A stretch of DNA of 64,000 nucleotides, from NCBI GenBank assembly GCA_963977015.1, contig CAXBMO010000012.1:64001-128000 (forward strand), written 5' to 3'. The DNA comes from an uncultured bacterium (GTDB taxonomy: Bacteria > Verrucomicrobiota > Verrucomicrobiia > Verrucomicrobiales > DEV007). The translations under genes and the position numbers were made by a program. Below the pieces are notes generated by a model. The model was not told the origin of the DNA, ran no database searches, and worked only from the letters and a program-made list of their open reading frames with translations. Within the stretch, counting starts at the first letter, position 1. The number at the start of each line of letters is the position of its first letter. Shown in pieces: positions 12,109 to 59,828 of this stretch.

Positions 12109-12127
12109 TCAAAAACCCTTTCAGACG

Positions 12128-15376: not shown

Positions 15377-15383
15377 GATCGAT

Positions 15384-17206: not shown

Positions 17207-20200
17207 ATGACTGATAGAAAGCGTTTCTCTCTGCGACAGCGACTTCGGAATCTTAAGAGCCGTCTGAAGGATGGTTCGGAGGAAGATCGCGTAAGGTTTG
17301 AACCCTTGGAGCCGCGGCTGTTGTTCTCCGCTTCTCCAGTTCCAACCGAAGTAGAGCCGGAACCTTCGCAAGAACCGCCTGCAGTTGAAATTGCTCCGGA
17401 AGGTGAGGCGGTGAGTGAGGATCAGATTCCAGAGAACGCTCCATCGGAAGTTCCGGAAGAAGCGGCCCCGGATCCAGTAGAAGAGACGATTCCTGATTCG
17501 GTTGCAGAAGCGACCCACTTTGAGATCGAGGGCGAAGCGGCTCTAGAGGACTTGATCAATCTGGAAGGCGGAGAGCAGGGAGTTCCCGAAAAAATTGTCG
17601 TATATGGAAGCGATGAGACCGACGACTTTCTGCGGATCGACCTGGGTCAGACCGATCAGATTTTGGACCTGACCTATCATGGCGGCGCCGGGGGCTACGA
17701 TACGATGGAGATCACCGGGGTGGCGATTGGCTCATACACGCCGGGCGCGGTTTATGGCGACGGGATCATCACGGCGGGCAAGAGCATTTTCCGGTTCACG
17801 GGGCTCGAGCCAGTCATCATCGATGGATCGGGATTGGCGGACAGCTCCTTCACGTTTACCACTCCAGGTGGTGCTGATGATCTGGTGATCGACAACCCGG
17901 CGGAGGGCCAGAACCGGATTCGCGGCTTGAGCGGAGGAACGCCGTTCGAGGAGATCATTTTCAGCAACGTCAAGAATCTCACGATCGACGCGGCGAGCAA
18001 CGACGTCGCCGGAGACCAGGATGATTCGATCACGTTCAGCGGCCCCCTTGTGGCGACGGGCCTGCAGACAGTGACGGTCCAAACCGGGGCGGGGAATGAC
18101 ACGATTACGGTTCAATCTGATTTTGTGAGCGCGAACGGAAACACCGTCGCGGTCACGCTCGATGCCGGTGACGGCGAGGACACGATCCTGGGGCCATCGC
18201 TCGACACGGTCTGGACCGTGAACGGCCGGAACGCCGGCGAAGTGGCGGGAATCGAATTTTCAAACGTGGAGAACCTGACCGGCGCGGCGGACAACGAGGA
18301 CGTCTTCGTCTTCACCGAATCCGGGAGCCTTTCGGGCGTGATTGCCGGGGGCGATCGCGGATTCGACACCCTGGAACTGGATGGCGGCACCTTTGATTCC
18401 GTAACGTTTACCGCGTTCAGTCCGGATGCGGGAACCGTGGAACGGGACTCGGACCTGATCACCTACGTCGGTCTCGAGCCGATCACTGACAACACCTCGA
18501 CGACCGATCGCGTGATCGGAATGAGCAACGACGCGGACACCGACGCGGTGCTGACCGGAACCGCGACGACGATGACGTTGGATGGATCGACGTTCGAAGG
18601 AATCACCTTCCTCAATCCGTCCAGTTCGTTGACGATTCAGGGGCTGGACGGCGAGGACACCATCACGATCAATTCGTTCAGCAGCGGGTTCATGGGCGAC
18701 CTGACGATCGAAGCTGAGCACATCGTGGTCTCCTCGGCGGCAACGATCAACACCGCAGGCAACGTGACCTTGCGCGCCGCGGCGCAGAACAGCGGCAGCA
18801 CGGTGATGTCAGCCAGCGTCAGCGTGGAAGGCTCGATCACGGCCGCCGCGCTTGAGATCAGTGCCGCGACCGATGGCAGCATTACCCTTGGATCCAGTAC
18901 CGATCTTGTGGCGACCAACACCTACGCCGAAAGCGCGACTGCGACGATCAGCGGGGGGACGATCAACGCGAATTCGTTGGTGCTCAGCGCGACAACGAGC
19001 ACGGATTACACCGCAACGGCGTTCGCCGCGCAGAACGTCATCACCGGTGCGGTAACCGCATCGATTGAGAACAGCAGTAGCGTCACCACCAGTGGCGCGG
19101 TGAGCGTGAGCGCGACGGACGAATCCTTTCTCACCGCTTCGGCGCCGGAACGCCTCATCGATGTCAGCGGCGGACTTCCCGCTTCAGTTGAAATCGCTGC
19201 GGCGCGCAACAGCCTGACCCGCGATGTGACCGCCTACGTTTCGGCGAGCACGGTGACGGCCAACAATGGCGACATCACGGTCGAGGCGACGAAATCCGCG
19301 AAAGCCAGCGCCAAGGCGGAGACGATCGCGCTTTCCTCCGGCGTCCCGGTCGTCATCCCGGATTCGCTGAGTTTCGGCGGCACCTATTCCTCCAATACCC
19401 TGTTGGGAGACACCAAAGCCTACGTCACCCTGGGTTCGACCCTGGAAACGACGGTGGCGGGCGACATTGCCGTCAGCGCCCGAGACGAATCCGCAGCCGA
19501 CTCGCGTTCCGGAGCCAGCGCCACCGCGCAAACCGCGAGCGTCTCCCTTGACGGAGTTGGCGGGTCGGTTGGCGCGTCGATTGCGTTTAACGCGATCGGC
19601 TGGGACACCGGAGCCGGGTTCATGACGCTGGACGCGTTGTTGGGAACCGGTCTGGGTACGGAATCGACGAACGAGGTCCAGGCTTACGTGACCGATTCCG
19701 ATGTCGATTCGGCCGACGATGTTTCCATCTCCGCGGAGGCTGCGACCCTGATCAACGCCACGGTGAGCAACGCCGCTGAGACGACCGCGTCCTCCCTTTT
19801 CGGGTCGAGCGGATCCGCCACCAGCGCGGTTGTGGCCAGCAACAAGATCAGTATCAGCAGTGAAGCCTTCATCGCAGATCAAGTCGACGGCGGAACCACC
19901 GAGGTGGACGCGGGCGGCGATCTGACGGTTCAGGCGACCGACAATTCGGGGATTCTTTCCAACGCGCGAGTTGTTTCCTCATCGATCACCACGAGCGACG
20001 GCGGAGCGGACGTGCTTCAAGGCATGATGCGCGATTTGCTCGATGCCGATTTCGAACCGGTTTCTGCGCCGACGAATGTGCAGGCGATCGCGTTTGGCGA
20101 AAAGGTCAGGCTGGCCGACGACTTTGCGACGCCGGATTTTCAGAGCGACGCCTTCGGGTTGCAGAACGTCGAAGCGGGTGACGTGGTGCAGTTGGCGGAT

Positions 20201-43849: not shown

Positions 43850-43861
43850 TAGGTGATCCTG

Positions 43862-44890
43862 ATGGAACACCCGTATCTCTGCGTTGATGAGTTTTTGACC
43901 GGTGTGGTCGAGACCAGAGCCCTCGTAACTGCATTTGAGGAGGGAGTGGTGGATGCGTTGGTGGCGAGCTCGCAACCCGTTCCTGTTGACGAACTGCGCC
44001 CCAGGAAACTGCGGGATCCGAAAGGGCTGGGTCTCTTGCTCGATATTTTGCGGGCAAATCGAGTGGTGACGATTGATTCCGATGGCGTAAGCCTGACGGC
44101 GTCGTTTCGCAACGCGTTGAAGTTTCGGGATCTCCTTGAGGTGAAAGCCGAATTTGCCCTCTTTTTTGCGTCGGACTGGGTCGACCGGTTTGATCTGCTT
44201 CTTGGCGATCCCGCAAAATTGATGGAGCAGTCTCAAGTGATGAAGCTTTTCGATTACGCAAAAGCCTTCAACGATACCCCGCAAAACTACGAGCACACCC
44301 GCCGCTGGATGCGGTTGACGACGACCCTGACACGCTACGAAGCTGAGGTGATCGCCCCAACCCTGGCCTTGGATTCCTTCCGTGAAATGCTCGATGTCGG
44401 GGGGAATAGCGGTGAATTTGCTCTTCGCTGCTGTAAGCGGGCCCCAACGCTGCGCGCCACGGTGTTTGACCTTCCCTTGGTCTGTCAGATCGGGAGGGAA
44501 CACGTTGCCCGCCATGAGGAGGCCGACCGGATCCAATTCCTCAACGCAAAGAGCCTGAGCGATTTGCGGCCGAAGCAATACGATCTGGTCACGTTCAAAT
44601 CGATGTTGCATGATTGGCCCAATGCGGAGGCAAAAGATTGGCTGCAAAGCGCGGTCGAATGCCTTCAGCCGGGTGGAACACTCCTCATCTTTGAGCGGGT
44701 TGCCTGGAATCTGGAGGCGCGGCACCTGGGGTTTTCCATGATCCCCATCCTGCTGTTTCATCGCTTTTATCGGGAGGCCACGTTTTACGAGGAATTTCTC
44801 GTCCAGCAAGGCTTGACGGACTTGGAATGCCGCATCGTGAATCTGGATACGCCTTTTCTGTGTCTTACGGCGAAAAAACAGGAAAACTAA
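43862..44890 (+). CDS. Class I SAM-dependent O-methyltransferase (methyltransf_2-like)
   Basis: MLDVGGNSG, VFDLP, FKSMLHDWP and LQPGG motifs. ATG 12 nt after the giant gene stop with AGGTGA RBS (alternative GTG at 43853). Confidence 0.9.
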   Translation: MEHPYLCVDEFLTGVVETRALVTAFEEGVVDALVASSQPVPVDELRPRKLRDPKGLGLLLDILRANRVVTIDSDGVSLTASFRNALKFRDLLEVKAEFALFFASDWVDRFDLLLGDPAKLMEQSQVMKLFDYAKAFNDTPQNYEHTRRWMRLTTTLTRYEAEVIAPTLALDSFREMLDVGGNSGEFALRCCKRAPTLRATVFDLPLVCQIGREHVARHEEADRIQFLNAKSLSDLRPKQYDLVTFKSMLHDWPNAEAKDWLQSAVECLQPGGTLLIFERVAWNLEARHLGFSMIPILLFHRFYREATFYEEFLVQQGLTDLECRIVNLDTPFLCLTAKKQEN

Positions 44891-45002
44891 AATCGTCATA
44901 AGTTTCATTTTTCCAATTTGGAGATTTGTTAGAAAGTCTCAGTTTCCCTGACTTGGTAAATGTTAGGGAATTCTTACGAATGCGATTGCATTTTGTGAAA
45001 AC

Positions 45003-47009
45003 ATGTTAGGGTGGCCCCAAAGCATGACAGCACGACAAAGGGTTCAACTTTGGAAGGCGGGCGATTTTTTCGTTGCCCTCCTGATTTTCCTAACACTATC
45101 AGTATCAACGCTGATGGCCGAGGAAGCGTCTACAAAGGCCGCTGCTTCTGAGGATCGGGGGCTTTCGGCGTGGATGGCAAAGCGATTTCAGCGAAAGGGC
45201 GGAGAATCTGCCCCAGCGACAGGGGAAACGGAAACACTCAAGGCGTCGGCAGAAGTTGAAGCCGTAGAACCGCCGCTTACCACCGAACTTTATCCGGCAA
45301 AACCATCGAGCACCAACTACAAGGGCACGCGATTCGAAAGGGACGTTGAAGAGGTTTTGGAAGGCCTGTATGAGGGGCTGGAAACCCGAGCGGAACAGAT
45401 CGATGATCCTGAGTTGCTGACTGGAAATTTGTCCGGCGTGTTGGATGAATCCGGCAAGTTTGACGCGGTTTGGAATGATCTTATCCGGCAGGGTTTTTGG
45501 CCGGCCCAGAAGCAGGTCACCCGAAGCGTTGACGAGACCTATGCCTTGTCTCTGCTTCACTCGAACCAGGTTCGATCCGCCACCAAGACTCCCTTGATCC
45601 GGGAAACCGCGTTGGTTGAGGCCGGGGAAACGTATGCCTTGGAGGCGTTCGCGGAAGGGGATATCCAACATTCCGACGAGCCAACGGGATCCTTGCTGTC
45701 GACTGGAAGCACCGGGCGGTTTGTTCAGGACGACAAGAATGGCGAAGTTGGCGTTCGAAAGCGGTTTTTGACGGGAACGGAACTTCGCCTCTCGAATCAA
45801 TTGGGCACGCTCGACAACAATTCTGACTTCTTGGATCCCAATCCCCAAACCAGCTCGGAAGTCGGGATTTCACTGATTCAGCCTATTTTTCGTGGGGGAG
45901 GCTACCAGTATCACCAGTCGATTTTCCGGCTCGCCGAGTTGGATAGTGAGGTTGCATCGGTCGGTTTTCTGCGTGGATTGGAAGGGCATTTACTGACGGT
46001 GAACCAAGCCTATTGGGGAGTCTATCTGGCTCGGGCCGCCTATCTCCAGCGAAAGGAGATGGTGAAGGAGACCCGGGACATTCTCGCGAAAATGGATGAT
46101 CGAGCGAGATTGGATGCCGACGCCACGGCTTCGGAACGGCTTCGTGCTCAAGCCACGTTGAAGAAGCGGGAAGCGGATTTGGCCCGCACCAAGATGCAGA
46201 TCAAGATTGCGGAGGAAAGGCTTCGTGCCCTCGTCAATGATCCTGACATGCCCATGGGATCCACCGGTGAAATGATTCCGGTGACTCGTCCTCAGCTGTC
46301 GCTTCCGCATGAAGACGTCCGTTTGGCGGTGGTCATGGCTCTCAACAATCGAGGAGAAGTCGTCCAAAGTGCGTTGGCGGTTCGCGCGGCCGTGATCCGA
46401 TGGAATCAAGCCGTCAAGGATCTCAAGCCTCAGCTGGATATCGTTGCTGAAGTCGGAGTCTCGGCATTGGATCGGGATCGAGATCTGGGAGGTGCCTATA
46501 GTGACCTCTCCGGACAGGATCCAGCCTGGAGGGCGGGGATTCGTTTCAGCCAGCCTCTGGAACGTCGATTTGTTCGCGCCAAGGTTCAACGCAGGGAGTT
46601 GGAATATCAGCAGGCGGTGGATAATTTCATGATTCGGGCCGACCAGATCATGTTGGAATCGTTGGTCAGCTATCGGGAAATGTTGGCCTCCTATCGTGAT
46701 ATGACAGGAAAATACGAGGCGGTAACGGCGTCTCGCGAAGACCTGCATCAACTGAGGGATCGTCTCAATATTGATGCCGATGGCAATCGCAACACGGTCT
46801 CCTATCAACTGCAATTGATCTTGGATGCAATGGACCGGAACAAGCAGGCTGAGGAAGAGTTCCTCGTCAGCGTCGTTACCTACAATACGGCTCTGGCTGC
46901 GTTGGAGCAGTCCAAAGGAACCTTTCTCCAATATAACAACGTCGAGATTTTGAGGGAAGAGACCGATGACGTGCTCGAGTCCGACTCCCTGAAGGTTCAG
47001 ATGCGTTAA
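45003..47009 (+). CDS. TolC family outer membrane efflux protein
   Basis: N-terminal hydrophobic segment and two OEP repeats (ISLIQPIFRG; PQLDI...IRFSQPL) with long coiled helices. Confidence 0.9.
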   Translation: MLGWPQSMTARQRVQLWKAGDFFVALLIFLTLSVSTLMAEEASTKAAASEDRGLSAWMAKRFQRKGGESAPATGETETLKASAEVEAVEPPLTTELYPAKPSSTNYKGTRFERDVEEVLEGLYEGLETRAEQIDDPELLTGNLSGVLDESGKFDAVWNDLIRQGFWPAQKQVTRSVDETYALSLLHSNQVRSATKTPLIRETALVEAGETYALEAFAEGDIQHSDEPTGSLLSTGSTGRFVQDDKNGEVGVRKRFLTGTELRLSNQLGTLDNNSDFLDPNPQTSSEVGISLIQPIFRGGGYQYHQSIFRLAELDSEVASVGFLRGLEGHLLTVNQAYWGVYLARAAYLQRKEMVKETRDILAKMDDRARLDADATASERLRAQATLKKREADLARTKMQIKIAEERLRALVNDPDMPMGSTGEMIPVTRPQLSLPHEDVRLAVVMALNNRGEVVQSALAVRAAVIRWNQAVKDLKPQLDIVAEVGVSALDRDRDLGGAYSDLSGQDPAWRAGIRFSQPLERRFVRAKVQRRELEYQQAVDNFMIRADQIMLESLVSYREMLASYRDMTGKYEAVTASREDLHQLRDRLNIDADGNRNTVSYQLQLILDAMDRNKQAEEEFLVSVVTYNTALAALEQSKGTFLQYNNVEILREETDDVLESDSLKVQMR

Positions 47010-47053
47010 TTGTTTTTAGCTGCGAAAGGTTTTTTTGAAGGTATGCTGGGCTG

Positions 47054-47974
47054 ATGGGATACTTCCGGCATGATGAGTATGTTGAACTGACAATGCACTT
47101 CAAATGCAATCTGAAGTGTGAGCATTGCATGATTGAAGGGACCATGAATTGGCTCAAACCGGAGTCGATTCAGCAGTTCCACTCGGTGTTGGAATTGAAC
47201 GCGCGCGAGAAGCGTTGGAAGGGAGTCATCTTTACCGGGGCAGAGGTCACGTTGTGCAAGGATCTGACGCAATGGGCTCGTCAGGCTCATCAAAACGGTT
47301 TTGAGAACGTCCGCATTCAAACGCATGGGATGAAATTGGCGGACCCGGACTACTGCGAGTCATTGGTCGATGCGGGGATCAATGAATATTTCATCAGCGT
47401 CACGGCTGCCGATGGTGAGACGCATGACGAAATCACCGGAGTTCCAGGTTCATGGGAAAAGACCATGGCAGGGATGGAGAATCTGAATCGATTCTCCGAT
47501 ATTGTGATGCACACCAACACGGTCATTACGCAACGCAGCTATCGTCAGCTTTCCCAGGTCATTCAGAGACTGCATCAATTGGAAAAGTTGGTTCAATTTG
47601 AGTTTTGGAACTATTGGCCCATGAGCGAATCGGATGGGAAGGATTTGATCGTGCCGCACGCGGAGGCGCTTCCCGAGATACGAAAAGCAATCCAACTGGC
47701 TGACCAATTAGGTAAAGAGATTGAAATTAAAAACTTTCCCGAATGCCTCTTGGGAAGGGACTCTGCGGCACTCAATAATTCGCAGCCCAAGCTGATCATC
47801 GATCCCGCCTTCTGGACGGAATTCAATCGCAATGGATTTCATCAATGCCGGCACCGCAGCTCCTGTCAAAGCACGCAGTGCCTCGGTCTCAATACGGCTT
47901 ATATAAATCGATATGGCTGGGAGGCTGATATGCTAACGCCAATCGCAGCGAAGGACGATGGAATCCCGTCTTGA
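47054..47974 (+). CDS. Radical SAM protein with C-terminal Cys cluster (HxsC-like maturase appearance)
   Basis: CNLKCEHC (CxxxCxxC), FTGAE, IQTHG, NFPECLL and C-terminal CRHRSSCQSTQCLG. Confidence 0.9.
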   Translation: MGYFRHDEYVELTMHFKCNLKCEHCMIEGTMNWLKPESIQQFHSVLELNAREKRWKGVIFTGAEVTLCKDLTQWARQAHQNGFENVRIQTHGMKLADPDYCESLVDAGINEYFISVTAADGETHDEITGVPGSWEKTMAGMENLNRFSDIVMHTNTVITQRSYRQLSQVIQRLHQLEKLVQFEFWNYWPMSESDGKDLIVPHAEALPEIRKAIQLADQLGKEIEIKNFPECLLGRDSAALNNSQPKLIIDPAFWTEFNRNGFHQCRHRSSCQSTQCLGLNTAYINRYGWEADMLTPIAAKDDGIPS

Positions 47975-48761
47975 GATTGAAGCTCCAAGCGGCACTCGGC
48001 GGTTATTCCAACGGATTGAATCGTTAGGAGTTCCGTTCATCCATGAGCGGTCGATTCGGTTTTCCCGAGGCTATATGGGGACCAAACGTTGCCTTTTGAG
48101 TATTGATCCGCAAAAGTTGGGGTCGCATTCCGGCGAAGTCATCCCGGCGGTTTGTCAGGAGCTGGGGATGCCGCATTCGCTTTCTGAAACGGTTCTTCAC
48201 TGGCTCCCGGAGGCAACGTTTGTCCATTTTGGGTTCGAAGATGACAGGAATCAATCCCGCTATAAAGTCTACTTTGAACAGCAGCGAAAACCGAATCAAG
48301 CCGGTGAACCGATCCTGCTTCATGTTGCTTTCAAGTGGAAGGTCCCATCATCCGAGCAATGGGTTGAATCCCGTTATTTTTGGTATCCGGACCAAACGCC
48401 GTCAGATCTCTGCCACAAGATCGGAGGCTACCATCGTGACCCTGAGAGCCCTTTGCTTGAGAGCATCAGAAGCATGATCAAACACGCTGGTTCGGCCGAA
48501 CTTCTGGAAGTCAGGGAGGAGAGGGGAGGGCGTTTTTCCTATGATCTCAATTTTTACGACAGCAATGTGGGAGTCCAATCCATTCGCGACGAGTTGGGAA
48601 TGGTGGGAGATTACTTCGGGATCCCGGAAGACGTAATCGAGACGTTGCTATCACGGATAGGGAGCGAAGATCTTGGGCATATTGCTAGCGGCCTGCATCG
48701 TGATGGAGAAGAGTTCCTTACTCTTTATTTTGGAGCGAGAATTCACCATGGACATTGTTGA
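47958..48761 (+). CDS. Hypothetical protein, possible ABBA/PT-barrel fold
   Basis: 267 aa, overlaps both neighbours; five predicted beta-hairpins. The fold call is inference. Confidence 0.8.
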   Translation: MESRLEIEAPSGTRRLFQRIESLGVPFIHERSIRFSRGYMGTKRCLLSIDPQKLGSHSGEVIPAVCQELGMPHSLSETVLHWLPEATFVHFGFEDDRNQSRYKVYFEQQRKPNQAGEPILLHVAFKWKVPSSEQWVESRYFWYPDQTPSDLCHKIGGYHRDPESPLLESIRSMIKHAGSAELLEVREERGGRFSYDLNFYDSNVGVQSIRDELGMVGDYFGIPEDVIETLLSRIGSEDLGHIASGLHRDGEEFLTLYFGARIHHGHC

Positions 48762-49608
48762 ACAAGCCACCCCGCAGGACTATTACTACAACTACTGTTG
48801 GTGGCCGTATCAACCGCAGGCTCCGACTGATGGAAAGATTCGGGCATCAAGCCTGCTGTTTCATTCGTTTGCATTGACAGGCGTTTTTGCGCCAGCCCGG
48901 CAGATTTGCGAAACGATGCGCACCGAGATCGGCTGTTTTCGAACCGTGTATGGAGTAAAATGGGCCGAAGGAAAACTCTCCTGGGAATACTATCTCTATG
49001 ATTACAAACGGGAGAATCGTAACGTTTCGATGTCGCGAGTCTTTCAGGCCCTACAGCCTCATCTTGAATGTTCTGTTCCGTTCCCGGAAGATCGACCCTA
49101 TTTCATGTTCTCATTTGATCTTGATCCGGATCTCATGAAAACCACTCCGAGGGTCGACAAGGTCAATATGTACATCGGAAATCCGGGGAGTACGGTTTCA
49201 TCAGGAATCTCCTATGGATTAACGCCCGAAAAGACGGAGATGGAGAATCTCTACTTCTTTTTTGACGCGAGATCCCAGATGTCTGAGGTGCTTGAGAAGC
49301 TCAGGTGCTCCGCCTTTCATCGTGGCGATGATTTTGTGATCGAAAATGTACTACACAAGGAGCTTCGGAACTGCCACACCATTTGTCTCGCGAACAAGCG
49401 CAATCGCGATACGGTCTACTATTCAGGAGTGGGTGTACAGCAACTGCGCTGGTTTCTGGAAGCGTTCAACTATCCTGCCGAAATCACGGATTTCGTGGCG
49501 GCGCATCAACATCAGTTGGATCACCTTCTCTTTGACGTCGGCTTTGACTATCAGGTGGTTGATGGGCGGGCGAAGGCGGTCAAAAGTGGTTTCTACGCCG
49601 TTTTTTAA
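48748..49608 (+). CDS. Hypothetical protein, aromatic-rich, possible ABBA/PT-barrel fold
   Basis: 286 aa from ATG 48748 (GGAG upstream), overlaps the previous gene. The fold call is inference. Confidence 0.8.
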   Translation: MDIVEQATPQDYYYNYCWWPYQPQAPTDGKIRASSLLFHSFALTGVFAPARQICETMRTEIGCFRTVYGVKWAEGKLSWEYYLYDYKRENRNVSMSRVFQALQPHLECSVPFPEDRPYFMFSFDLDPDLMKTTPRVDKVNMYIGNPGSTVSSGISYGLTPEKTEMENLYFFFDARSQMSEVLEKLRCSAFHRGDDFVIENVLHKELRNCHTICLANKRNRDTVYYSGVGVQQLRWFLEAFNYPAEITDFVAAHQHQLDHLLFDVGFDYQVVDGRAKAVKSGFYAVF

Positions 49609-51128
49609 AGAGGAGGGCGGTGGATCGTTTCCAGCAGTTCCCGGTGAGTGGGGAGCGAATCGGCCAACGATTGATGACGCTGCCGAATTTGATCGAAGAT
49701 CGGCAGGACTTTCTCGAAGTTGGAAACATCAGCGCGAGTCGCGTGACGACGGGGAAGCTGGTCTGCGGCGGCGAAGAGAGAATACCACGTTGCGTCAGGA
49801 GCGAAGTCGCTCAAATGAGGTTCAATCCTTCCGTTCTCCAGATAGGTTTGCAGGCCCTGGTCCAGCGTGCTGGAAAGGGGCGCCTTTCGGCACTGTTCCC
49901 AGACGGCGCCTGGTCGGCGGCTCAAGCGATAGTGTGCCTGGGCAAAGTCGCGTGCCGCCTGGTAGGACTTTCCAACCATCTCATTGTATTGGGAAGAGAG
50001 CGTGGGATTGAATTCGCGGTCCGGAAAATAATCCAGCAGGAGGCCAAGACTTCGTTGTAACAACGAAACAGGAGGGCTGAGCAAGGGATCGATAAAACCG
50101 GCAGCGCTTCCGAGTGACACGCAATTGGCAGACCAAAACCGGGTTCGCCGACCGTTCTTATATTGGAAATGGATCGGCTCAGCACTTCGCCCCTTGATGG
50201 AGAAGTCCTGACTGACGTTCTCATGAAGAGCGGCAAACGTCTGGTCCGGCAGAGTGTGCTGGCTGGAGGTAAGGGATCCCCATTGAAGGCGATGACTGAG
50301 CGGCAACTTCCAGTCCCAACCCTCGTTGGTGGCCATGACGGTGGTAAAAGGAGGTGACTGCTCGTCGCGAGGCAACCGCAGAAAGACGGCCTGATCCAGA
50401 GGAAGGGCGTCGGACCAACTTTGCCAGGGATCTCCCAACGCTTTCTCAATCAAGGTGCCGGATGAACCTGTGCAATCGAGATACAGATCGGCGGTGAAGG
50501 TCCGGCCTTGAGAGGTTTGGACGCTTTCGATTGAGCCATTAGCTCGCAGAGTCGGCTCGACAACACTGTCAAAGACTTGCTCAACGCCTTCTCCAATGGC
50601 GAGGGTGGTGAGGAAGTTTTTGAAGGCGGTGACGTCGACGTGATAGGAGATGGCTCCGGATTGGATGACCGGTGACTCTCCTTGAAAGGGCCGCGGTGCC
50701 TTGGATTGTTCACAAAGCAGCGCGTGGAGCGAGTAGTCGGTATAGTTGCCTTTCGATTGGCCGCAATGCAGGGCTTTGAGCCAAAATTGAAAGAGGTCGA
50801 GCCCATCGATGGAACTATTGAGTCCTCCGATAGGCTCCCAGAATCGGGAACCGTCCTGGACCCAGTTTTGGAACTGGGTTGCGACCTTGTAGGTGGCGTT
50901 GGATTGGCGCATGAAATGCGCCTCATCCAATCGCATGGCGAAAAGATACTGAAGGAGCGGCGCGGAAGAGCAGACTTCATCCGGATCAGGCTCGACGGAG
51001 TCAAGCAGGGTGATCTGGCAGCCTGTTTTCCCCAGCGTACGATTCAAGTACGCCGCCGACATCCAGCCGGTCAGGCCGCCACCGGCGATCAGGATCTTTT
51101 CTATCCGGCCTGAAGTTTGCGTGGGCAA
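49605..51128 (-). CDS. Tryptophan halogenase-family flavoprotein (divergent)
   Basis: IAGGGLTG, ATYK (catalytic Lys position), ADLYLDCTG, GWDWKLP and NCVSLG. TTG start; stop overlaps the convergent gene. Confidence 0.9.
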   Translation of the reverse strand: MPTQTSGRIEKILIAGGGLTGWMSAAYLNRTLGKTGCQITLLDSVEPDPDEVCSSAPLLQYLFAMRLDEAHFMRQSNATYKVATQFQNWVQDGSRFWEPIGGLNSSIDGLDLFQFWLKALHCGQSKGNYTDYSLHALLCEQSKAPRPFQGESPVIQSGAISYHVDVTAFKNFLTTLAIGEGVEQVFDSVVEPTLRANGSIESVQTSQGRTFTADLYLDCTGSSGTLIEKALGDPWQSWSDALPLDQAVFLRLPRDEQSPPFTTVMATNEGWDWKLPLSHRLQWGSLTSSQHTLPDQTFAALHENVSQDFSIKGRSAEPIHFQYKNGRRTRFWSANCVSLGSAAGFIDPLLSPPVSLLQRSLGLLLDYFPDREFNPTLSSQYNEMVGKSYQAARDFAQAHYRLSRRPGAVWEQCRKAPLSSTLDQGLQTYLENGRIEPHLSDFAPDATWYSLFAAADQLPRRHATRADVSNFEKVLPIFDQIRQRHQSLADSLPTHRELLETIHRPPL

Positions 51129-51139
51129 AGGCAGCGGTC

Positions 51140-51466: not shown

Positions 51467-51513
51467 AATTGAATATAATAGAGAATATAATAAGGGAGTG
51501 TGATGGTAGATTG

Positions 51514-51894
51514 TTATTCCGTTTCAGAAGACGGTGGAGACAGAATTTGATGAAGGGTAGTAATAAGATTTTGAGCCGTCTGTGGAGTCATGGCTACGCG
51601 TTCCTGGATCGGAAGAATATGACTACCGGAACCATGATCGGAAATTAACCCGGTTGAAAAATCCAGGATGATCTGTCCCCCTCCGGCGTTGGCGATAAAA
51701 CGATTGGCAAAGAGCGCGGATGTCTTCTCATAGAGAATGCGGACATCCGGTTTGCTGTGTTGCTCCAGAACCGGTGGCTCGGCGATGGTTTCTGAAACGA
51801 CTTCACTGGTTGCTTCGGGCAACTCTGGAGTGGCTTCGATGGCGACTTCTGGTTCCTTCTTCGGCTTAGGGGCCGTCTTTTTCCTTCCAAACAT
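51514..51894 (-). CDS. DUF3467 domain protein (paralog 2)
   Basis: FANRFIANAGGGQIILDFS...ERVAMTPQTAQNL. Start placed at MFGRKK (51894). Confidence 0.85.
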   Translation of the reverse strand: MFGRKKTAPKPKKEPEVAIEATPELPEATSEVVSETIAEPPVLEQHSKPDVRILYEKTSALFANRFIANAGGGQIILDFSTGLISDHGSGSHILPIQERVAMTPQTAQNLITTLHQILSPPSSETE

Positions 51895-52050
51895 GGGTCC
51901 AAGGTCAATGGCTGAGTAACATGGGCCAACAGCTTTGGCGAAGCGCAAGCTACTTTGTCGTTTTGTTAGGATTGTAGCTTTGGCGCACTGGTCGTCAAGC
52001 TTCACAATGGGATCTTTGTGGGCTTATTTGGCATCAATCCTTTGTTGCTT

Positions 52051-52090
52051 GTTTAAATATTATGAATATTATGCAAAAATTAACTAATTG
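52051..52090. promoter_or_regulatory. AT-rich divergent promoter with tandem 9-mer AATATTATG x2
   Basis: AATATTATG at 52056-52064 and 52065-52073, between the divergent operons. Confidence 0.5.
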
Positions 52091-52116
52091 GATGAAGTCC
52101 GCTTCATTCTGTTTTC

Positions 52117-53985
52117 ATGAGTACCACTTCCCTTCCCGCCGAATCCCATCTTCAGGCGTTGGGTGCATCCAATGCCCAACCGCAGGATTGGTCTGCTGAA
52201 ATTCAGTCGATCCTGGGACTTGGAAGTGATGATGAGTTTCTTGCCGCCGTCGTGTCGCTGGTGGCAAGTGTGACGAAAGCCGGTGGGAGTTTTCTGTTTG
52301 TTCCCAACGGTCCGGAGGGGCGGCCCCAGTGTGCCGTGAGCCGGATGTTGACCGGCGTAAGCCTTGAGTTGTTGAACTCCGAGCGGGTTCAGGGCGGGAT
52401 TTCTCAAACGATTCGAGATGGAAAGATTACGCAGATCGAAGTCGTCAATCACGGGAAGCCTTCGGTGTGGATCAATGTTCCGAGCCCAAGTCTCTCTACC
52501 GGCCGGTGGAGTTTGTCGGCATTGGTGGAGAATACCGATCGATCCCGGTTGGAGGACGCCACTTCGCTTTTGCAGATGGTGACGCTTTTGCTGGATCAAC
52601 GAAGGCGCTTGGGAAATACAGGAAAGCTGAAGGCCGGATTCAGCCAGGCCACTCTGTTTCTGGAGCTTTTGTGCCGGACCGGAACGGATGTGGAGTTGGA
52701 GCGCTCGGTGGCGACCCTCGCCAATGACCTGAAGGGGTTTGTCGACTGCCATCAGGTTGCCATTGGAATTGGGAACCGCCGAAGCTGCCGCGCCAGCGCA
52801 ATTTCAGGAGCGGGTCGATTCGATCGCCGTGCGCAACCGGCCATCCATCTTCGCGCCTTCATGGAGGAGGCGATCGGAGTGGATTCGGCAATCTGTTGGC
52901 CCTATACCAAAGATCTGCCCCGAGAGGTGATGGTGAGTGGAAATCACGATCGGTTGCTGGAGGTTCTGGACATCAAGTTTGCGATGGCGATTCCCCTCAA
53001 GACGGAAGAGGGCGATACCGTCGGGGCCGTGGTGTTTCTCGATCAGGCAGGGAGTTCATCACTGGTTCGACGTTGGGAACTTCTTCAGGCAATGTCGCCT
53101 CACGTCGCCGCCGTGACGCGGTTGATGGCGTCCAGTAAACCGCGCGGAAAATGGGCCGTGATCCGGCGGAAACTGAAAGAGAAATCCGGCGCGAAACGGT
53201 TGGTGATCGGGTTGTTGGTTGCCGCCTCGATGGCAGCCATGTGGATACCCGTTCCCTATTCCATTTCAGCAAGATGCCAGTTGGAACCTGTGGTGACCCG
53301 GCAGATTGCGGCTCCCTTTGACGGGGTGCTGGCTCGTCCCGAAGTGAAGCCTGGCGCGATGGTGGTGGAAGGCCAGTTGCTCGCAACGTTGGACGGAAAA
53401 GAGATTGGCTGGAGGCTGGCCGAAGCGGTGTCGAAACATGACATTGCCTTGAAACGCCGGGCCCAGGGAATTGCCAACGATGATATTCAATCCGCTCAAT
53501 TGGCGGATCTGGAGGTGAAGGCCAAGGCTCTTGAAGTCAAGATCTTGCGGCATCATCAGCTGAACCTTGAGGTCCTTGCCCCGATTGACGGCATGGTCCT
53601 CAGTGGCGATCTCAAGCAATCAGAGGGGGTGCCCGTTTCGAAGGGTCAACAGCTGTTCGAAATCGCAAAAATTGACCAGTTGCGGGTGGAGATCGGGGTC
53701 CCCGATTCCGAGGTCAGTCACATCCGTACCGGGATGAAGGTAAATCTCCGACTGGACTCCCAAGTGCAAAGTCATCTGGAGACGGAGGTGGACTCCATCA
53801 GCCCCGCCTCGACCGCAAAAGACAATCGCAATGTGTTCGTCTGTCATGCCTCAATCGGGAATGAAGCGGGATTGTTGCGACCTGGAATGCAGGGAAAGGC
53901 GAGGATCTGGTCCGATCATCGGAAGTTGGGCTGGATAGTCTTCCATAAACCCTGGGAAACGATTCGGCGCTACCTTTGGTTCTAA
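52117..53985 (+). CDS. GAF-domain-fused HlyD/membrane fusion protein
   Basis: Cytoplasmic GAF-like region (AMAIPLKTEEGDTVGAVVF), a TM, IAAPFDGVL..VKPGAMVVEGQLL and APIDGMV lipoyl halves, and LLRPGMQGKARI. Confidence 0.9.
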   Translation: MSTTSLPAESHLQALGASNAQPQDWSAEIQSILGLGSDDEFLAAVVSLVASVTKAGGSFLFVPNGPEGRPQCAVSRMLTGVSLELLNSERVQGGISQTIRDGKITQIEVVNHGKPSVWINVPSPSLSTGRWSLSALVENTDRSRLEDATSLLQMVTLLLDQRRRLGNTGKLKAGFSQATLFLELLCRTGTDVELERSVATLANDLKGFVDCHQVAIGIGNRRSCRASAISGAGRFDRRAQPAIHLRAFMEEAIGVDSAICWPYTKDLPREVMVSGNHDRLLEVLDIKFAMAIPLKTEEGDTVGAVVFLDQAGSSSLVRRWELLQAMSPHVAAVTRLMASSKPRGKWAVIRRKLKEKSGAKRLVIGLLVAASMAAMWIPVPYSISARCQLEPVVTRQIAAPFDGVLARPEVKPGAMVVEGQLLATLDGKEIGWRLAEAVSKHDIALKRRAQGIANDDIQSAQLADLEVKAKALEVKILRHHQLNLEVLAPIDGMVLSGDLKQSEGVPVSKGQQLFEIAKIDQLRVEIGVPDSEVSHIRTGMKVNLRLDSQVQSHLETEVDSISPASTAKDNRNVFVCHASIGNEAGLLRPGMQGKARIWSDHRKLGWIVFHKPWETIRRYLWF

Positions 53986-53993
53986 GCAAAGCA

Positions 53994-56234
53994 ATGACCA
54001 CGGGAAAACCAGATTATGCCGTTCGAGATTGGATCGCGTCGAAACCCAGAATTCGGGACCAGGTTCGGTTTCATTATCAGGACGACAACGGAACGGCCAT
54101 TTACGTTTTAGAGGATCTCGTCAATCGCAGTTATATCCAGATTGGAGTTCCGGAATACCGATTTCTCCGTGGGCTTGATGGCAGCCGAACGGTGGCGCAA
54201 CTGCTTTCCAGCAGCGCCGGGAAACAGGGTGAGGAGGGATTGAGCGAGGACGATGTTTCCAGTTTGTTGCGGTGGCTTCTTGATCAACAGCTCCTCGAAC
54301 CTGAAGACGGTGAGCAGGGCGAACGCAGGTTTCTTCATCACGAAAGCCAGTCCTCTCCGCAACGAGGGAGCCCTCTCATGAAGCTGTTGTTTTGGAGGAT
54401 CTCGCTGGGGAGTCCTGATCGATTTTTCCATGCGTTAAACCGACTTTTTGGCTGGTTCTTTTCGCTTCCTGCCATGCTGGTCTGGTTGGGGACGATTGGC
54501 TACGCAGCGTACCTGGCGTCGACCCATTGGCGGGCGTTGGTGGATGCCGGGTCCAGGGCAGTCTTGCCGGGCAACTGGCTTTCTCTCATTTTGGTCTACG
54601 TGGTCCTGAAGGTGTTTCATGAGTTTGGTCATGGCATCGCGACGAAGCGGTTTCGCGGGGTTGTTCCGGAATGGGGAGTTCAACTGATCGCGTTTGTGAC
54701 TCCGTTGACGTATGTGGATGCAACCGCCAGTTGGGCGTTTCGCTCACGTCGGAAACGTCTGATCGTCGCGTTCGCGGGAATCTACGTGGAACTGTTTCTC
54801 GCTGCGATTGCGCTCTTTGTCTGGAGTCGAACGGATCCCGGAACCGTGCAAACCATGGCGGCCAATATCGCGATAGCGGCGTCGTCGATTACCCTCTTGT
54901 TTAATGCGAATCCGTTGATGCGTTTTGACGGATATTATATGCTCAGTGATCTGTTGGGTCTTCGCAATCTGGCTCCGCGGGGACAACAGTTGATGCAGTG
55001 GTTGGGGCGCAAAGTGTTTTTCGGGGCGAAAGGGCCGATGCCTCGTGGTACCCGCCGCCAGACCGGGATTCTCTTTTTCTACGGTTCCCTTGCCGCAATG
55101 TGGCGGGTTCTCATCTTTGTCGGGATCATGGCGTTGGTTAGTCAGATGTTCCAGGGCGCCGGTCTGCTGTTGGTGGGAATTGGAATCCTCATCGGCGTTG
55201 CGACGCTTCTTTATTCGTTGATCAAGCTCCTGATTGAGGATCATGCCACGTTCCTGAGAGCGGCGGTGAGGATGGTTGTGATTTTGGGGCTGGCCGGATG
55301 CGCCCTTTGGGTGGTTCAGGTTAGCCCTGCGCCGACCGCTCTGGCGTTGGTTGAATTTCCAGACAAGGCGATTCTTCGTGCCGAGGCACCCGGATTCGTT
55401 TCTCAGGTGCTCTGTCAAGATGGAGATCGCGTGGCCAAGGGAGACCTGCTGGCCATTCTGGAAAACGAGGAAGAAAAAGGATTGCTGGAGCAGTTGGAGT
55501 TGGATCTGAAACGCTCTCGACAGCAAGCGCTCCAGTATTTGGATCAGGAACAGGTATCCTCTTATCAAGCTGAATTGGACGTGCAAATGGGGTTGGAGGA
55601 GCGGTTGTCCACGCAGCGGCAGAGAGTTGCGTCCCTCGAGTTTCGTTCGCCCATAGCGGGAATTGTTCGCGAGGCGAAACTGGATTCAAAACCCGGGCGA
55701 TATTTGCGGACCGGCGAACGCTTTCTGTCGGTATATCCGGACGTGGCACCTCAGTTGCTGATCTCAGCCCGGCAAGATGATGCCGAGGCGTTGGGAGAGA
55801 CCGCGCCGCGGATTCGTTGCAGACTTCGAGGCCGCCCCAATGAGATGGTCGCCGTCATTCATCGAATCGAAAAGCGGGCAACGGTCGCGGTTCCACACTG
55901 GGCCCTGGCCGCGAGTTCGGGAGGTCCCCTTCCGGTTCGAGAGGTTTCTCAAGGGAATGAGAAGGAACAGGGGCTTGCGGCGAAGGCGTCAGGCAGTGAG
56001 GCCCTCAATCACTTTCGTGGAGTGCGCCCGGAAATGGAAGGGATGTCTCAAGAACTTTCTCGTCCCCGGATGGTCGCTTATGCAACGCTGGAATCCGTTC
56101 AGGAAGCCATGGCGCTTCGAGAAGGTGAGTGGGGCCACGCGAAGCTCACGCACGGAAATCGCGAGCGTCTGGGGAGTTGGATCTATCGGAAGACGTTCAA
56201 CTATCTGCGAAGCCGATTCGAACAGCGTATCTGA
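53994..56234 (+). CDS. PqqD/RRE-like + site-2 protease (M50) + HlyD fusion
   Basis: N-terminal YVLEDL...YRFLRGLDGSRTVAQL...LLRWLLDQQLL (RRE pattern), HEFGH and NANPLMRFDGY zinc motifs, multiple TMs, and a C-terminal lipoyl/hairpin MFP domain. Confidence 0.9.
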   Translation: MTTGKPDYAVRDWIASKPRIRDQVRFHYQDDNGTAIYVLEDLVNRSYIQIGVPEYRFLRGLDGSRTVAQLLSSSAGKQGEEGLSEDDVSSLLRWLLDQQLLEPEDGEQGERRFLHHESQSSPQRGSPLMKLLFWRISLGSPDRFFHALNRLFGWFFSLPAMLVWLGTIGYAAYLASTHWRALVDAGSRAVLPGNWLSLILVYVVLKVFHEFGHGIATKRFRGVVPEWGVQLIAFVTPLTYVDATASWAFRSRRKRLIVAFAGIYVELFLAAIALFVWSRTDPGTVQTMAANIAIAASSITLLFNANPLMRFDGYYMLSDLLGLRNLAPRGQQLMQWLGRKVFFGAKGPMPRGTRRQTGILFFYGSLAAMWRVLIFVGIMALVSQMFQGAGLLLVGIGILIGVATLLYSLIKLLIEDHATFLRAAVRMVVILGLAGCALWVVQVSPAPTALALVEFPDKAILRAEAPGFVSQVLCQDGDRVAKGDLLAILENEEEKGLLEQLELDLKRSRQQALQYLDQEQVSSYQAELDVQMGLEERLSTQRQRVASLEFRSPIAGIVREAKLDSKPGRYLRTGERFLSVYPDVAPQLLISARQDDAEALGETAPRIRCRLRGRPNEMVAVIHRIEKRATVAVPHWALAASSGGPLPVREVSQGNEKEQGLAAKASGSEALNHFRGVRPEMEGMSQELSRPRMVAYATLESVQEAMALREGEWGHAKLTHGNRERLGSWIYRKTFNYLRSRFEQRI

Positions 56235-56247
56235 TCCCTTTTTGCCG

Positions 56248-58149: not shown

Positions 58150-58164
58150 AACCACAACCATCCT

Positions 58165-58983
58165 ATGACTCGACTCCTTGTTGCCCTTTTCCTGTTCACC
58201 AGCCCCTTGATCGCTCAAGACGGCCATTTCGAAGTTCTCACGACCCTGCGACCTTACCAGAGTATTGAACTTTCGACGACCGAACGCGGCGTGATTCGTG
58301 AAATCCTGGCTCAACCGGGTGACGAGGTCGTGGCTGGCCAGGTTCTCATCAAGTTGAATGCGGAAACCATCGCTGCGCGATTGGCTCAAGCCAAGATTCA
58401 AGCCAAGCACAGCGGTCTCGTTGTCGCTGCAGAAGCCGGATACAATCTCTCCAAAGACCGGTTCGAAATTGTTTCTCAACTCAAGAAGCGAGGAACCGCG
58501 AATGCCGCTGAACTGGATCGGGAGTTGGCGACGTTCAAGGCGCGCGAAGGCGAGTTGATGGCGGCCCGTGAACAGCAGGAGCTTTTCGGGTATCAAGTTC
58601 AACAGATTGAGGCGGAGCTGGAACAGCGATTTTTGCGAAGCCCGATCGATGGTGTGGTCACCGATGTCGCGAAGGATGTTGCTGAAGCCGTCGGGCAGAA
58701 CCTGGCGTCTGAGTCGCCCTATCTGATTCGTGTTGTGAATCTCGACCAGCTCTCGTCCAAAGCTCACATCCCCTATGTTCACGCTCAAAATCTCCAACTC
58801 GGTCAGGTCCTCAAAATCCGCCTGGAAGACGGGAGGCAGACCGAGGCCGAGGCGGAAATTGAATTCATTTCCCCAATTGTTGAGCCGGCCACCGGAACCG
58901 TTGAGGTTCGGCTGGTGGTGCAGAATCTGGAGCGCAGGTATGTCAGTGGACTTCCGTCCAGGTTGCTCGTTCCCATCAAGTAA
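58165..58983 (+). CDS. Periplasmic adaptor (RND/HlyD MFP) with cleavable signal peptide
   Basis: Signal peptide, GVIREILAQPGDEVVAGQVL, LRSPIDGVV and FISPIVEPATGTVEVR. Confidence 0.9.
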   Translation: MTRLLVALFLFTSPLIAQDGHFEVLTTLRPYQSIELSTTERGVIREILAQPGDEVVAGQVLIKLNAETIAARLAQAKIQAKHSGLVVAAEAGYNLSKDRFEIVSQLKKRGTANAAELDRELATFKAREGELMAAREQQELFGYQVQQIEAELEQRFLRSPIDGVVTDVAKDVAEAVGQNLASESPYLIRVVNLDQLSSKAHIPYVHAQNLQLGQVLKIRLEDGRQTEAEAEIEFISPIVEPATGTVEVRLVVQNLERRYVSGLPSRLLVPIK

Positions 58984-59809: not shown

Positions 59810-59828
59810 CCACTTTTTACCGGGCCGC

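Follow-up and report, generated by a model that had tools for sequence, protein, structure and literature searches.

How proteins of 5,000–20,000 residues are exported across two membranes is, to our knowledge, largely unexplained outside the type I systems driven by an ATP-binding cassette (ABC) transporter. The question is raised by a locus in an uncultured bacterium of the order Verrucomicrobiales (GTDB lineage DEV007; assembly GCA_963977015.1, contig CAXBMO010000012.1), in which the gene for an 8880-residue protein with an LEPR-XLL motif (hereafter the giant) is followed by genes for tailoring enzymes, a TolC channel and an exporter cassette with a SecA-type ATPase. The window, i.e., the whole stretch of DNA that was analysed, comprises 64,000 nucleotides (positions 64,001 to 128,000 of the contig, forward strand), and the locus takes up 42 kb of it (17207–58983), as delimited by the list of open reading frames (ORFs) and by Pfam and NCBIfam searches. 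The locus proved to be a real system, and its conservation extends over two phyla and many metagenome loci. We consider it probable, if far from assured, that it works as one functional locus of three modules, namely a cargo, an exporter and an optional tailoring arm acting on the giant family. Such a locus would offer a concrete alternative export machine together with a defined cargo signal, LEPR-XLL.

Linkage of giants, exporter and enzymes across genomes

Two genome samples were searched for LEPR-XLL giants and for homologues of the M50-HlyD protein of the exporter, a fusion of an M50-type protease with a HlyD adaptor. In the first sample, 151 genomes of the phylum of the window, M50-HlyD homologues (called at E ≤ 1e-20) were present in 37/151 genomes and LEPR-XLL proteins in 11/151, and the 11 LEPR-XLL genomes occupied exactly ranks 1–11 by best M50-HlyD E-value. 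The LEPR start lies at most 3 kb from M50-HlyD in three of these genomes (G099, G123 and G096), the two genes are adjacent in the genome of the window (contig C12), and in the other seven they are far apart or on different contigs. The second sample, independent of the first, held 121 genomes of the alphaproteobacterial family around Methylorubrum; M50-HlyD was found in 34/121 and LEPR-XLL in 15/121, with the top 14 M50-HlyD ranks all LEPR-positive. In the fifteenth LEPR genome (G439), M50-HlyD was not found; the LEPR frame there lies at about position 2,800 of contig C265. The rank pattern recurs in two phyla, in samples that include related genomes, so that the counts overstate independence and the ranks are not independent trials. 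From these sequence comparisons we propose the LEPR-XLL giants as cargo candidates of the cassette.

The tailoring arm of the window comprises an O-methyltransferase, a radical S-adenosylmethionine (SAM) enzyme, a halogenase and two conserved ORFs that match no Pfam or NCBIfam family, here called unkA and unkB. A relative of unkA is recorded from Methylorubrum populi as a halogenase-unkA fusion, and a genome search with this fusion gave seven Methylorubrum/Methylobacterium loci. In L001–L004 and L006, tblastn with the window proteins revealed on the minus strand the order short adaptor, SecA-like ATPase, M50-HlyD and large HlyD adaptor, and on the plus strand the order O-methyltransferase, halogenase-unkA, unkB and radical SAM, followed by an LEPR giant; no short-adaptor match was obtained in L003. 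The minus-strand operon of L004 is headed by a 107-residue DUF3467 ORF upstream of the large adaptor. Between the enzymes and the giant start, the same locus carries an AraC-type regulator and a SapC-family protein (L004:14279–16946; Pfam 1e-71), and its giant ORF begins LIFDPLEPRVLLDG; no SapC is present in the window. Each of three Methylorubrum/Methylobacterium genomes checked holds a single LEPR giant (frames of 15,371, 14,241 and 15,161 residues) and a single M50-HlyD, at the same locus. Furthermore, the unkA profile matched 7/121 genomes of the family sample, all seven LEPR-positive and cassette-positive, and unkA lay 3–5 kb from the LEPR start in six of them, the seventh (G426) being fragmented.

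A metagenome scan with an alignment of DUF3467-unkA-unkA fusions afforded 261 relatives, of which 80 loci were kept, and features were counted on the 30 loci of at least 10 kb. Open frames of at least 1000 residues occurred in 23/30 loci and of at least 2000 residues in 16/30, although frames of at least 1000 residues can be spurious in GC-rich DNA, as is the case for a 1310-residue antisense frame in L004. An LEPR-type start, recognised by a regular expression, was found in 8/30 and at least one cassette gene in 11/30, and a frame of at least 1000 residues, an LEPR start or a cassette gene in 27/30 (the exceptions being L050, L054 and L061). Radical SAM genes were present in 18 of the 30 loci, O-methyltransferase genes in 17 and halogenase genes in none. 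Seven metagenome loci that were mapped have the recurring order giant, DUF3467-unkA(-unkA), radical SAM, unkB and O-methyltransferase, with, for example, a 205-residue P-loop protein and a second radical SAM enzyme further 3′, and last either an LEPR giant or the entire cassette (L026). Several metagenome giants end 50–350 nt 5′ of the fusion gene, comparable to the position of the window giant just 5′ of the methyltransferase gene. Other searches gave little: a word-index search for unkA returned just 2 proteins, a metagenome scan with the single protein P0010 found no relative, and a class-level alphaproteobacterial sample had unkA in 1/251 genomes, which is the centre genome itself.

These results established a conserved linkage of giant, exporter and enzyme arm across two phyla and many metagenome loci, the enzymes being of types known elsewhere for small peptides and metabolites. 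The reading given by the first-pass annotation of the window, made from the sequence alone, would have failed had the enzyme genes occurred mostly apart from giants and secretion genes; in the family genomes (7/7) and the long metagenome loci (27/30) they do not. An accidental neighbourhood, in which an enzyme island was inserted beside a giant gene and an exporter, might be suspected from a dip of the G+C content to 0.52–0.53 over the enzyme genes at 44–52 kb (0.55–0.63 around them), and the matching region of Methylorubrum extorquens AM1 is described in the relevant passages of one paper as a strain-specific genomic island (PMC2680597). Recurrence of the same combination in two phyla and at most of the long metagenome loci contradicts such an accident, which we regard as extremely improbable.

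Two proteins of the metagenome operons have no counterpart in the window. One, of 160–180 residues, is encoded directly upstream of the DUF3467-unkA gene and is 81–93% identical between loci (L034:9482–9970, L062:9433–9972 and L055:6713–7357). The other is a P-loop protein of about 205 residues, about 51% identical between loci (L015:9141–9752, L055:10609–11277 and L067:20345–20968); in P0099, unkA itself carries a fused P-loop domain.

Gene layout and the exporter

The features of the locus are collected in Table 1. The ORF list, Pfam and NCBIfam placed all genes at the positions given by the first-pass annotation: the 8880-residue giant with an O-methyltransferase gene within 12 nt of it, the TolC, radical SAM and two family-less genes 3′ of the methyltransferase, and the truncated SecA and short membrane-fusion protein at the far end. 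The TGA codon of the giant ends at 43849 and the methyltransferase starts with GTG at 43853 or ATG at 43862, leaving a gap of 3–12 nt. The TolC gene is flanked by enzyme genes, and the gaps of this plus-strand run are 3–113 nt. A convergent halogenase gene, whose stop overlaps that of unkB, and two DUF3467 copies were also found in the order described; copy b gave no Pfam match at E ≤ 0.01 and was recognised just as a paralogue of copy a, matching our own DUF3467 profile (A3) at 3e-43. The run of HlyD adaptor, M50-HlyD, SecA-like ATPase and short adaptor diverges from the halogenase-DUF3467 operon at a region of about 220 nt (51895–52116), and all other intergenic gaps across 43.8–59.1 kb are below 115 nt. 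As the annotation had also stated, no ABC, nonribosomal peptide synthetase or polyketide synthase family was detected by Pfam among the 14 locus ORFs scanned. Promoter and terminator sites were no more frequent in the scan than in shuffled sequence.

Table 1. Genes of the giant-protein locus, with positions in the window
Feature	Position	Strand	Evidence and remarks
LEPR-XLL giant, 8880 aa	17207–43849	+	uninterrupted ORF; NF012209
O-methyltransferase, COMT-like Methyltransf_2 + Dimerisation domain	43853–44890	+	Methyltransf_2 6.8e-21; LDVGGNSG motif
TolC-family outer-membrane channel	45003–47009	+	OEP 1.1e-13; TIGR01844 4.2e-13, below cut-off
Radical SAM enzyme, 306 aa	47054–47974	+	Pfam 1.4e-16; CX3CX2C = Cys 18/22/25
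unkA, ABBA (PT-barrel) fold, predicted model	47958–48761	+	no Pfam or NCBIfam match
unkB, second conserved family	~48748–49608	+	start at 48673, 48700 or 48748; no Pfam or NCBIfam match
Flavin-dependent halogenase, tryptophan-halogenase family	49605–51128	−	Trp_halogenase 4e-105
DUF3467 copy a, 108 aa	51140–51466	−	Pfam 1.1e-6
DUF3467 copy b, start uncertain, frame open to 52005	51514–51894	−	paralogue of copy a, 55–64% identity
HlyD adaptor, large cytoplasmic N-terminal domain	52117–53985	+	HlyD_3 1.1e-18, HlyD_D23
M50-HlyD fusion	53976–56234	+	HEFGH at residue 215; NF041824 5.4e-44
Truncated SecA-like ATPase, 633 aa	56248–58149	+	SecA_DEAD 1.1e-87, SecA_PP_bind, P-loop_SecA
Short membrane-fusion protein, 272 aa, signal-like N-terminus	58165–58983	+	RND_mfp 6.1e-28, over cut-off; HlyD_D23

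The first HlyD adaptor combines a cytoplasmic N-terminal domain of about 350 residues, one hydrophobic segment (residues 359–377, from hydropathy) and a periplasmic HlyD part. It is the protein that appears in the literature as 'GAF-HlyD', and it is homologous to the Methylorubrum 'GAF' gene (27–28% identity). The annotation had read it as a GAF-HlyD protein; the HlyD part stood, and residues 1–380 gave no Pfam match to a GAF domain even at E ≤ 1. Its reading of the next gene as an RRE-M50-HlyD fusion, the first term denoting a RiPP recognition element (RiPP, a peptide made by the ribosome and modified post-translationally), stood for HlyD and, with qualification, for M50. The M50 domain scores 22.2 bits, under the Pfam cut-off of 27.2, and is supported by the HEFGH motif, by five hydrophobic segments and by the best NCBIfam match, NF041824 (daptide_HExxH), whose 150.8 bits against a cut-off of 300 place the protein outside the daptide proteases proper. 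The protein would thus begin with a cytoplasmic domain, followed by an M50-type HExxH intramembrane protease and a HlyD part. No PqqD/RRE domain was matched by Pfam in residues 1–200 even at E ≤ 1; the stretch FLRGLDGSRTVAQLL...VSSLLRWLLDQQLL in this N-terminus may look PqqD-like. The SecA-like protein covers positions 16–611 of the 789 positions of the SecA model and stops there, so that the two nucleotide-binding domains (NBD1 and NBD2) and the preprotein cross-linking domain are present and the C-terminal scaffold, wing and tail are missing. It scores below the cut-offs of the canonical SecA families (563.5 bits vs 862 for PRK09200; 557.9 vs 800 for TIGR00963), and a full-length SecA (1079-residue frame) is encoded elsewhere in the genome, on contig C3.

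The cassette has relatives within and outside the genome. A second cassette (C11:105678–125918) has a 3761-residue LEPR-type protein and a TolC gene inserted between the M50-HlyD and SecA-like genes, and a third is split between C7 and C3. Paralogues of M50-HlyD lie on C7 (44% identity) and C11 (34–35%), and those of TolC on C3 and C11. The window cassette is homologous to the Methylorubrum cassette at 25–43% identity.

A cassette of this kind has been described computationally. Kamneva, Poudel and Ward (2015; PLoS One, PMC4452313) reported, in bacteria of the Planctomycetes-Verrucomicrobia-Chlamydiae (PVC) group, Proteobacteria, Nitrospirae and Chlorobi, a 'secondary SecA_DEAD' locus with the same four genes, namely a HlyD adaptor with a cytoplasmic domain, an M50-like HlyD fusion, a truncated SecA_DEAD protein and a small HlyD/biotin-lipoyl protein; OEP/TolC is sometimes nearby, and the window locus has TolC. 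Their main text proposes the SecA_DEAD protein as the ATPase that replaces the ABC transporter, calls the biological role completely unknown and names the operon META1p2399–2402 of M. extorquens AM1. In the window, the truncated SecA_DEAD occurs beside a full-length SecA elsewhere and next to an M50-HlyD and a small HlyD/biotin-lipoyl protein; the exporter is a member of the secondary SecA_DEAD locus. The annotation had referred to a connection of SecA_DEAD with type I-like genes and large proteins from PVC comparative genomics, which proved real for the former. As for the latter, the main text of PMC4452313, the supplements being outside this check, contains none of the terms 'giant', 'large protein', 'halogenase', 'methyltransferase', 'radical SAM' and 'DUF3467', so that the links to LEPR-XLL cargo, DUF3467 and the enzyme arm come from the present counts. 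Vuilleumier et al. (2009; PMC2680597) described a 62-kb strain-specific island of M. extorquens AM1 (META1_2402–2415) around a 15,831-residue repeat protein, META1_2412, which the passages on it treat just as a hypothetical giant gene, proposing neither exporter nor enzymes. By gene numbers, this island abuts the cassette named in PMC4452313, and the giants of related Methylorubrum species are collinear with the window giant. On the gene numbers of the two papers, M. extorquens AM1 thus appears to carry the same locus; the related Methylorubrum/Methylobacterium loci were examined directly.

Two other known systems resemble the exporter in part. Type I secretion of giant RTX adhesins (HlyBD-TolC, LapBCE; as treated in the relevant parts of PMC8277102) likewise uses HlyD-type adaptors, a TolC channel and a very large cargo with GGxGxD repeats. 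In contrast, a SecA-like ATPase and an M50 protease take the place of the ABC transporter in the window locus, the adaptors number three rather than one, and the conserved signal of its giant is N-terminal (LEPR-XLL) and not only C-terminal. The exporter shares the HlyD-type adaptor and TolC with type I systems and falls outside them by their defining component, the ABC transporter. Giant proteins of Omnitrophota with a SecA_DEAD domain and a proposed export role (bioRxiv 10.1101/2023.11.21.568195) similarly associate a SecA motor without scaffold and wing domains with giant proteins. According to the text of that preprint, which does not mention HlyD, TolC, LEPR or halogenase, the giant there itself contains the motor as one of its domains and lies among type II secretion-like genes, whereas the window has a separate 633-residue protein in a HlyD/TolC cassette.

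In the mechanism that we propose, the basic stretch and the LEPR-XLL motif at the N-terminus of the giant would form an export leader that is recognised in the cytoplasm. The exporter would be an ABC-less, type I-like machine spanning the envelope, made up of two DUF3467 proteins, the HlyD adaptor, M50-HlyD, the SecA-like ATPase, the short secreted adaptor and TolC. With its N-terminus leading, the unfolded chain may be driven by the SecA-like motor into the adaptor-TolC tunnel, by way of a pore that the membrane segments of the protease and adaptor would form, and the M50 protease would cut off the leader.

The giant protein and its relatives

The giant is a member of the LEPR-XLL domain family (NF012209, LEPR-8K; 26.3 bits against a cut-off of 17, and 29.8 bits in the genome search). 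The motif, preceded by a basic stretch, occupies residues 30–47 (nt 17294–17347) and reads FEPLEPRLLFSASP. The first 4000 residues gave no Pfam match, and a Beta_helix/NosD region was found by Pfam near residues 8200–8430. The region of residues 7132–8020, conserved among relatives, has no Pfam match and no PDB sequence match; by eye, it consists of GGxGxD-type and Calx-beta-like repeats.

The window giant is collinear with the Methylorubrum giant (the 15,371-residue frame) in five long blocks of 30–41% identity. The giant was also cut into 400-residue pieces, which were searched against the 12 further giants encoded in the same genome and against those of enzyme-bearing loci. Residues 1–8400 matched the Methylorubrum giant as well as giants from metagenome loci that carry the enzymes, with a peak of 50–54% identity at residues 7201–7600, and had no match to own-genome giants except one weak one. 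Only residues 8401–8800 resemble own-genome giants (32–37% identity). On the other side, the exporter proteins are closer to own-genome paralogues (44–52% identity) than to those of Methylorubrum (25–43%). Since the giant resembles foreign giants, the exporter resembles own paralogues and the G+C content dips over the enzyme genes, the locus looks like a mosaic of an acquired giant-plus-enzymes unit, a lineage-typical exporter and a host-type C-terminal end on the giant.

The host-like part is the last stretch of about 480 residues (residues 8401–8880, window 42407–43846), compared with giants on C6, C37 and C14. The own-genome giants share a C-terminal motif, GGILP...LxLGDIFGMIID..PEEA, of which the window giant has the diverged version FSVGDLDITGRLVSPVDQAL, and this part may serve for anchoring or late export as a module matched to the host. 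The metagenome giants whose frames stop just 5′ of enzyme genes (L027, L059, L066, L037, L029 and L011) have a zinc-protease-like motif HExxHxxGxxD, DLLTVVMHELGHVLGY, about 80 residues from the end, and they also end with W[LIV]xx[FY]L...PNxxIxIxL, in which the Trp is conserved; neither motif occurs in that form in the window giant.

The genome of the window has 12 NF012209 matches with frames of 2361–12,571 residues, and a thirteenth LEPR-type protein, the 3761-residue one of the second cassette, starts with HFEPLEPRILFDA and was missed by the NF012209 search at E ≤ 1e-3. Together the 13 frames amount to about 84,300 codons, or about 3.7% of the 6.89-Mb assembly, and four of them lie within one 70-kb stretch of C3. 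By this share of the DNA, the LEPR system is a major investment for the cell.

Tailoring enzymes, DUF3467 and the candidate substrate

The AlphaFold2 model of unkA has a mean predicted local distance difference test (pLDDT) score of 93.6, and a Foldseek search of the PDB gave 98 matches at E ≤ 1e-3, among which the matches listed are aromatic and peptide prenyltransferases. The PDB entries include 6zs0, 7vmw, 5tu6, 8ye0 and 4bg2, and the enzymes include bacterial dimethylallyl-tryptophan synthases and the peptide prenyltransferases LimF, PagF, KgpF and PatF, with TM-scores of 0.5–0.63. The model thus places unkA in the PT-barrel fold, whereas by sequence it belongs neither to PTase_Orf2 nor to Trp_DMAT and matches nothing in Pfam or the PDB. 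The family counts 777 representatives at E ≤ 1e-3 in a library clustered at 50%. Across 40 members, R44, K103, R192, Y140, Y257, E30, E94 and E107 are invariant, and the strand residues among them alternate as expected of barrel-facing positions; they presumably line the active site. Furthermore, 25 family members picked by length were scanned for fusions. An N-terminal DUF3467 was found in 8/25, a tryptophan halogenase in 3/25, and a methyltransferase, FAD-binding plus sulfotransferase domains and a P-loop domain in 1/25 each, the remaining 11/25 having no extra domain. By these fusions, unkA, DUF3467, the halogenase and a methyltransferase are linked to a common process.

Alternatively, the barrel proteins might not be enzymes at all and might act as holdases or chaperones that prevent a part of the giant from folding, with the other enzymes acting elsewhere, a role in keeping with the missing sequence match to prenyltransferase families in Pfam or to the PDB and with TM-scores of just 0.5–0.63 to solved prenyltransferases. 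The invariant basic, tyrosine and acidic residues alternating on the strands, and the fusions to halogenase, methyltransferase and flavoenzyme/sulfotransferase domains, point to chemistry instead, and we rate the holdase role as highly improbable.

The second family-less protein, unkB, has neither a Pfam match nor a PDB sequence match and is 40–43% identical between the window, Methylorubrum and metagenome loci. A weak Atlas feature gives a lead that it might be prenyltransferase-like. Derivation of unkB as a paralogue of unkA was rejected (hhalign probability 0.4–0.5%, no profile similarity). The radical SAM enzyme is 53–55% identical to the Methylorubrum copies and has four C-terminal cysteines (231, 265, 271 and 276), and no SPASM family reaches its cut-off. 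Homologues of the O-methyltransferase in the Methylorubrum loci are 39–42% identical. The halogenase belongs by sequence to PF04820 (352.7 bits vs 21), with GGGLTG at residue 16 and WDWKLP as a variant of WxWxIP, and is the only close copy in the genome.

We infer that the O-methyltransferase, the radical SAM enzyme, unkA, unkB and the halogenase most likely modify the giant family to which this protein belongs before or during export, with DUF3467 handing the substrate to the enzymes and to the exporter. The logic would resemble that of RiPP pathways with peptide prenyltransferases (PagF, LimF, KgpF and PatF), in which a leader, tailoring enzymes, a protease and export are likewise combined; unkA has the fold of their prenyltransferases, and the M50-type leader protease of daptides is, below its cut-off, the best NCBIfam match of the window M50 domain. 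In contrast to these pathways, the candidate substrate has 8880 residues, unkA and unkB belong to no Pfam or NCBIfam family, and no RRE was detected. A short precursor is missing as well: across 43.8–59.1 kb, there is no small gene with a leader/core layout and no free small ORF except one non-conserved ORF of 26 residues. The latter (52007–52087, plus strand; rich in Tyr, Trp, Phe and Cys) sits in AT-rich, promoter-like DNA where DUF3467 copy b and the first adaptor gene diverge. Neither the genome nor the 90 loci searched contain a homologue, and the ORF was judged spurious.

The claim of the first-pass annotation that no convincing small precursor gene is present needs one amendment in the light of DUF3467, which is a conserved small ORF that recurs in homologous loci and looks adaptor-like. 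Its core is 60–87% identical across Verrucomicrobiales records; the N- and C-terminal tails vary, are acidic and conserve no aromatic residue. DUF3467 exceeded the Pfam cut-off in 14 genomes of the family sample, all 14 LEPR-positive. In 11 of the 14 (12 loci), whether or not enzymes are present, it shares a strand with M50-HlyD and stands about 2 kb upstream of that gene. The same position is seen at the enzyme-less C7 locus and in G005, and in G422 DUF3467 lies 2–3 kb past the 3′ end of each giant. The model of copy a (pLDDT 71) is a small beta-sheet packed on a long helix. A wide VIA-align comparison gave a weak likeness to COMM, PC4 and Pur-alpha oligomerisation domains (Z at most 5.5). 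Identity as a SecB-like chaperone was not supported, as Foldseek found no PDB match at E ≤ 1e-3 and no SecB stands among the VIA-align matches listed.

DUF3467 proteins could themselves be the true substrates, as precursors or scaffolds that are tailored, cut by the M50 protease and exported in a RiPP-like manner, the giant being a separate cargo or a neighbour. A conserved small ORF of 100–126 residues that heads the exporter operon, two tandem copies in an operon with the halogenase in the window, and a RiPP leader protease family as the best NCBIfam match of the M50 domain would fit such a role. However, a conserved core with variable acidic tails devoid of a conserved aromatic residue is the opposite of a leader/core layout, DUF3467 is present in enzyme-less loci and fused to the N-terminus of the enzymes themselves, and it models as a folded domain of middling confidence; we find this alternative improbable. 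RiPP recognition elements occur free or fused to the N-terminus of enzymes, as DUF3467 does. By analogy, and because of its conserved core, variable tails and N-terminal fusion to enzymes, DUF3467 may be an adaptor for enzymes and exporter rather than a precursor.

A more serious alternative, raised in similar form by the first-pass annotation, is that the giant stays unmodified and the enzymes convert an amino acid or indole into a small aromatic metabolite bearing prenyl, halogen and methyl groups, which would leave via this same TolC/adaptor conduit or act in concert with the giant at the surface. COMT-type methyltransferases, the tryptophan-halogenase family and ABBA prenyltransferases mostly act on small molecules, and the fusion of a halogenase with unkA suggests consecutive reactions on a single small substrate. 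In enzyme-linked giants, the leaders, which consist of a basic stretch followed by LLEPLEPRxLLSAD, have no conserved aromatic residue, so that an obvious target of a halogenase or prenyltransferase is not in the leader. However, neither the window locus nor any of the seven metagenome loci that were mapped shows a scaffold-forming or activating enzyme, DUF3467 is a protein domain that is found in fusion with the barrel enzymes and serves exporters without enzymes as well, the enzyme-linked giants are a family of their own, and the enzyme genes abut the 3′ or 5′ end of the giant in locus after locus. We judge a small-molecule product unlikely and retain it as a serious rival because the leaders have no aromatic target and the enzyme arm is optional.

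Besides the usual substrates of these enzyme families, the leaders without an aromatic target, the related genomes in the samples and the frames that can be spurious, several other observations weigh against modification and export of the giant as proposed. No membrane pore component was identified in the locus. In the phylum sample, the Pfam model and our own profile both found DUF3467 in none of the other 10 LEPR genomes, which shows that it is not a universal part of the exporter. The enzyme arm was found in 0/10 of the same genomes and in 7/15 LEPR genomes of the family sample (not found in 8/15), and it is thus an optional add-on and not part of LEPR loci in general. Finally, no halogenase was found in any of the 80 metagenome loci.

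In its full form, our proposal is that a subfamily of LEPR-XLL giants is prenylated, methylated, modified by a radical SAM enzyme and, in some lineages, halogenated by a RiPP-type enzyme set, that DUF3467 recruits these enzymes as a new kind of substrate-recognition element, and that the subfamily is exported N-terminus first through a SecA motor, an M50 protease, three adaptors and TolC; we put this forward tentatively, as a chain of steps whose joint truth is doubtful. If it is true, the locus combines a new route of protein secretion with the first case of leader-guided tailoring, in the manner of natural products, on a protein of several thousand residues, and protein-scale prenylation or halogenation would be a new chemistry on bacterial surfaces. 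The first-pass annotation had suggested a protein-scale RiPP-like system; the linkage of enzymes, giant and exporter in that suggestion is now supported, and the mechanism is plausible on the sequence evidence. Its statement that such an enzyme cassette had not been described for these loci also holds, as a literature search, with the supplements of PMC4452313 outside it, found no paper linking LEPR-XLL giants, the cassette and the enzymes; PMC4452313 and the Omnitrophota preprint were the only relevant papers that it turned up, and no experimental study of the arrangement was found. Species related to M. extorquens have one giant, one cassette and one enzyme set each, and if the same holds for AM1, a harmless laboratory strain, the question is directly testable there.

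The genes around the locus were also inspected. On the 5′ side of the giant (window 10010–16793) are a FecR-type anti-sigma gene and the gene for a 1106-residue PSCyt1/PSCyt2/PSD1 protein, paired with that for a DUF1501 protein. The latter gene pair is typical of Planctomycetes and Verrucomicrobia, and none of these genes shows a sign of belonging to the locus. On the 3′ side of the last adaptor gene (window 59078–60296), ORFs of 243 and 175 residues belong to no Pfam or NCBIfam family, and the 243-residue ORF has a 40% identical paralogue on C8.

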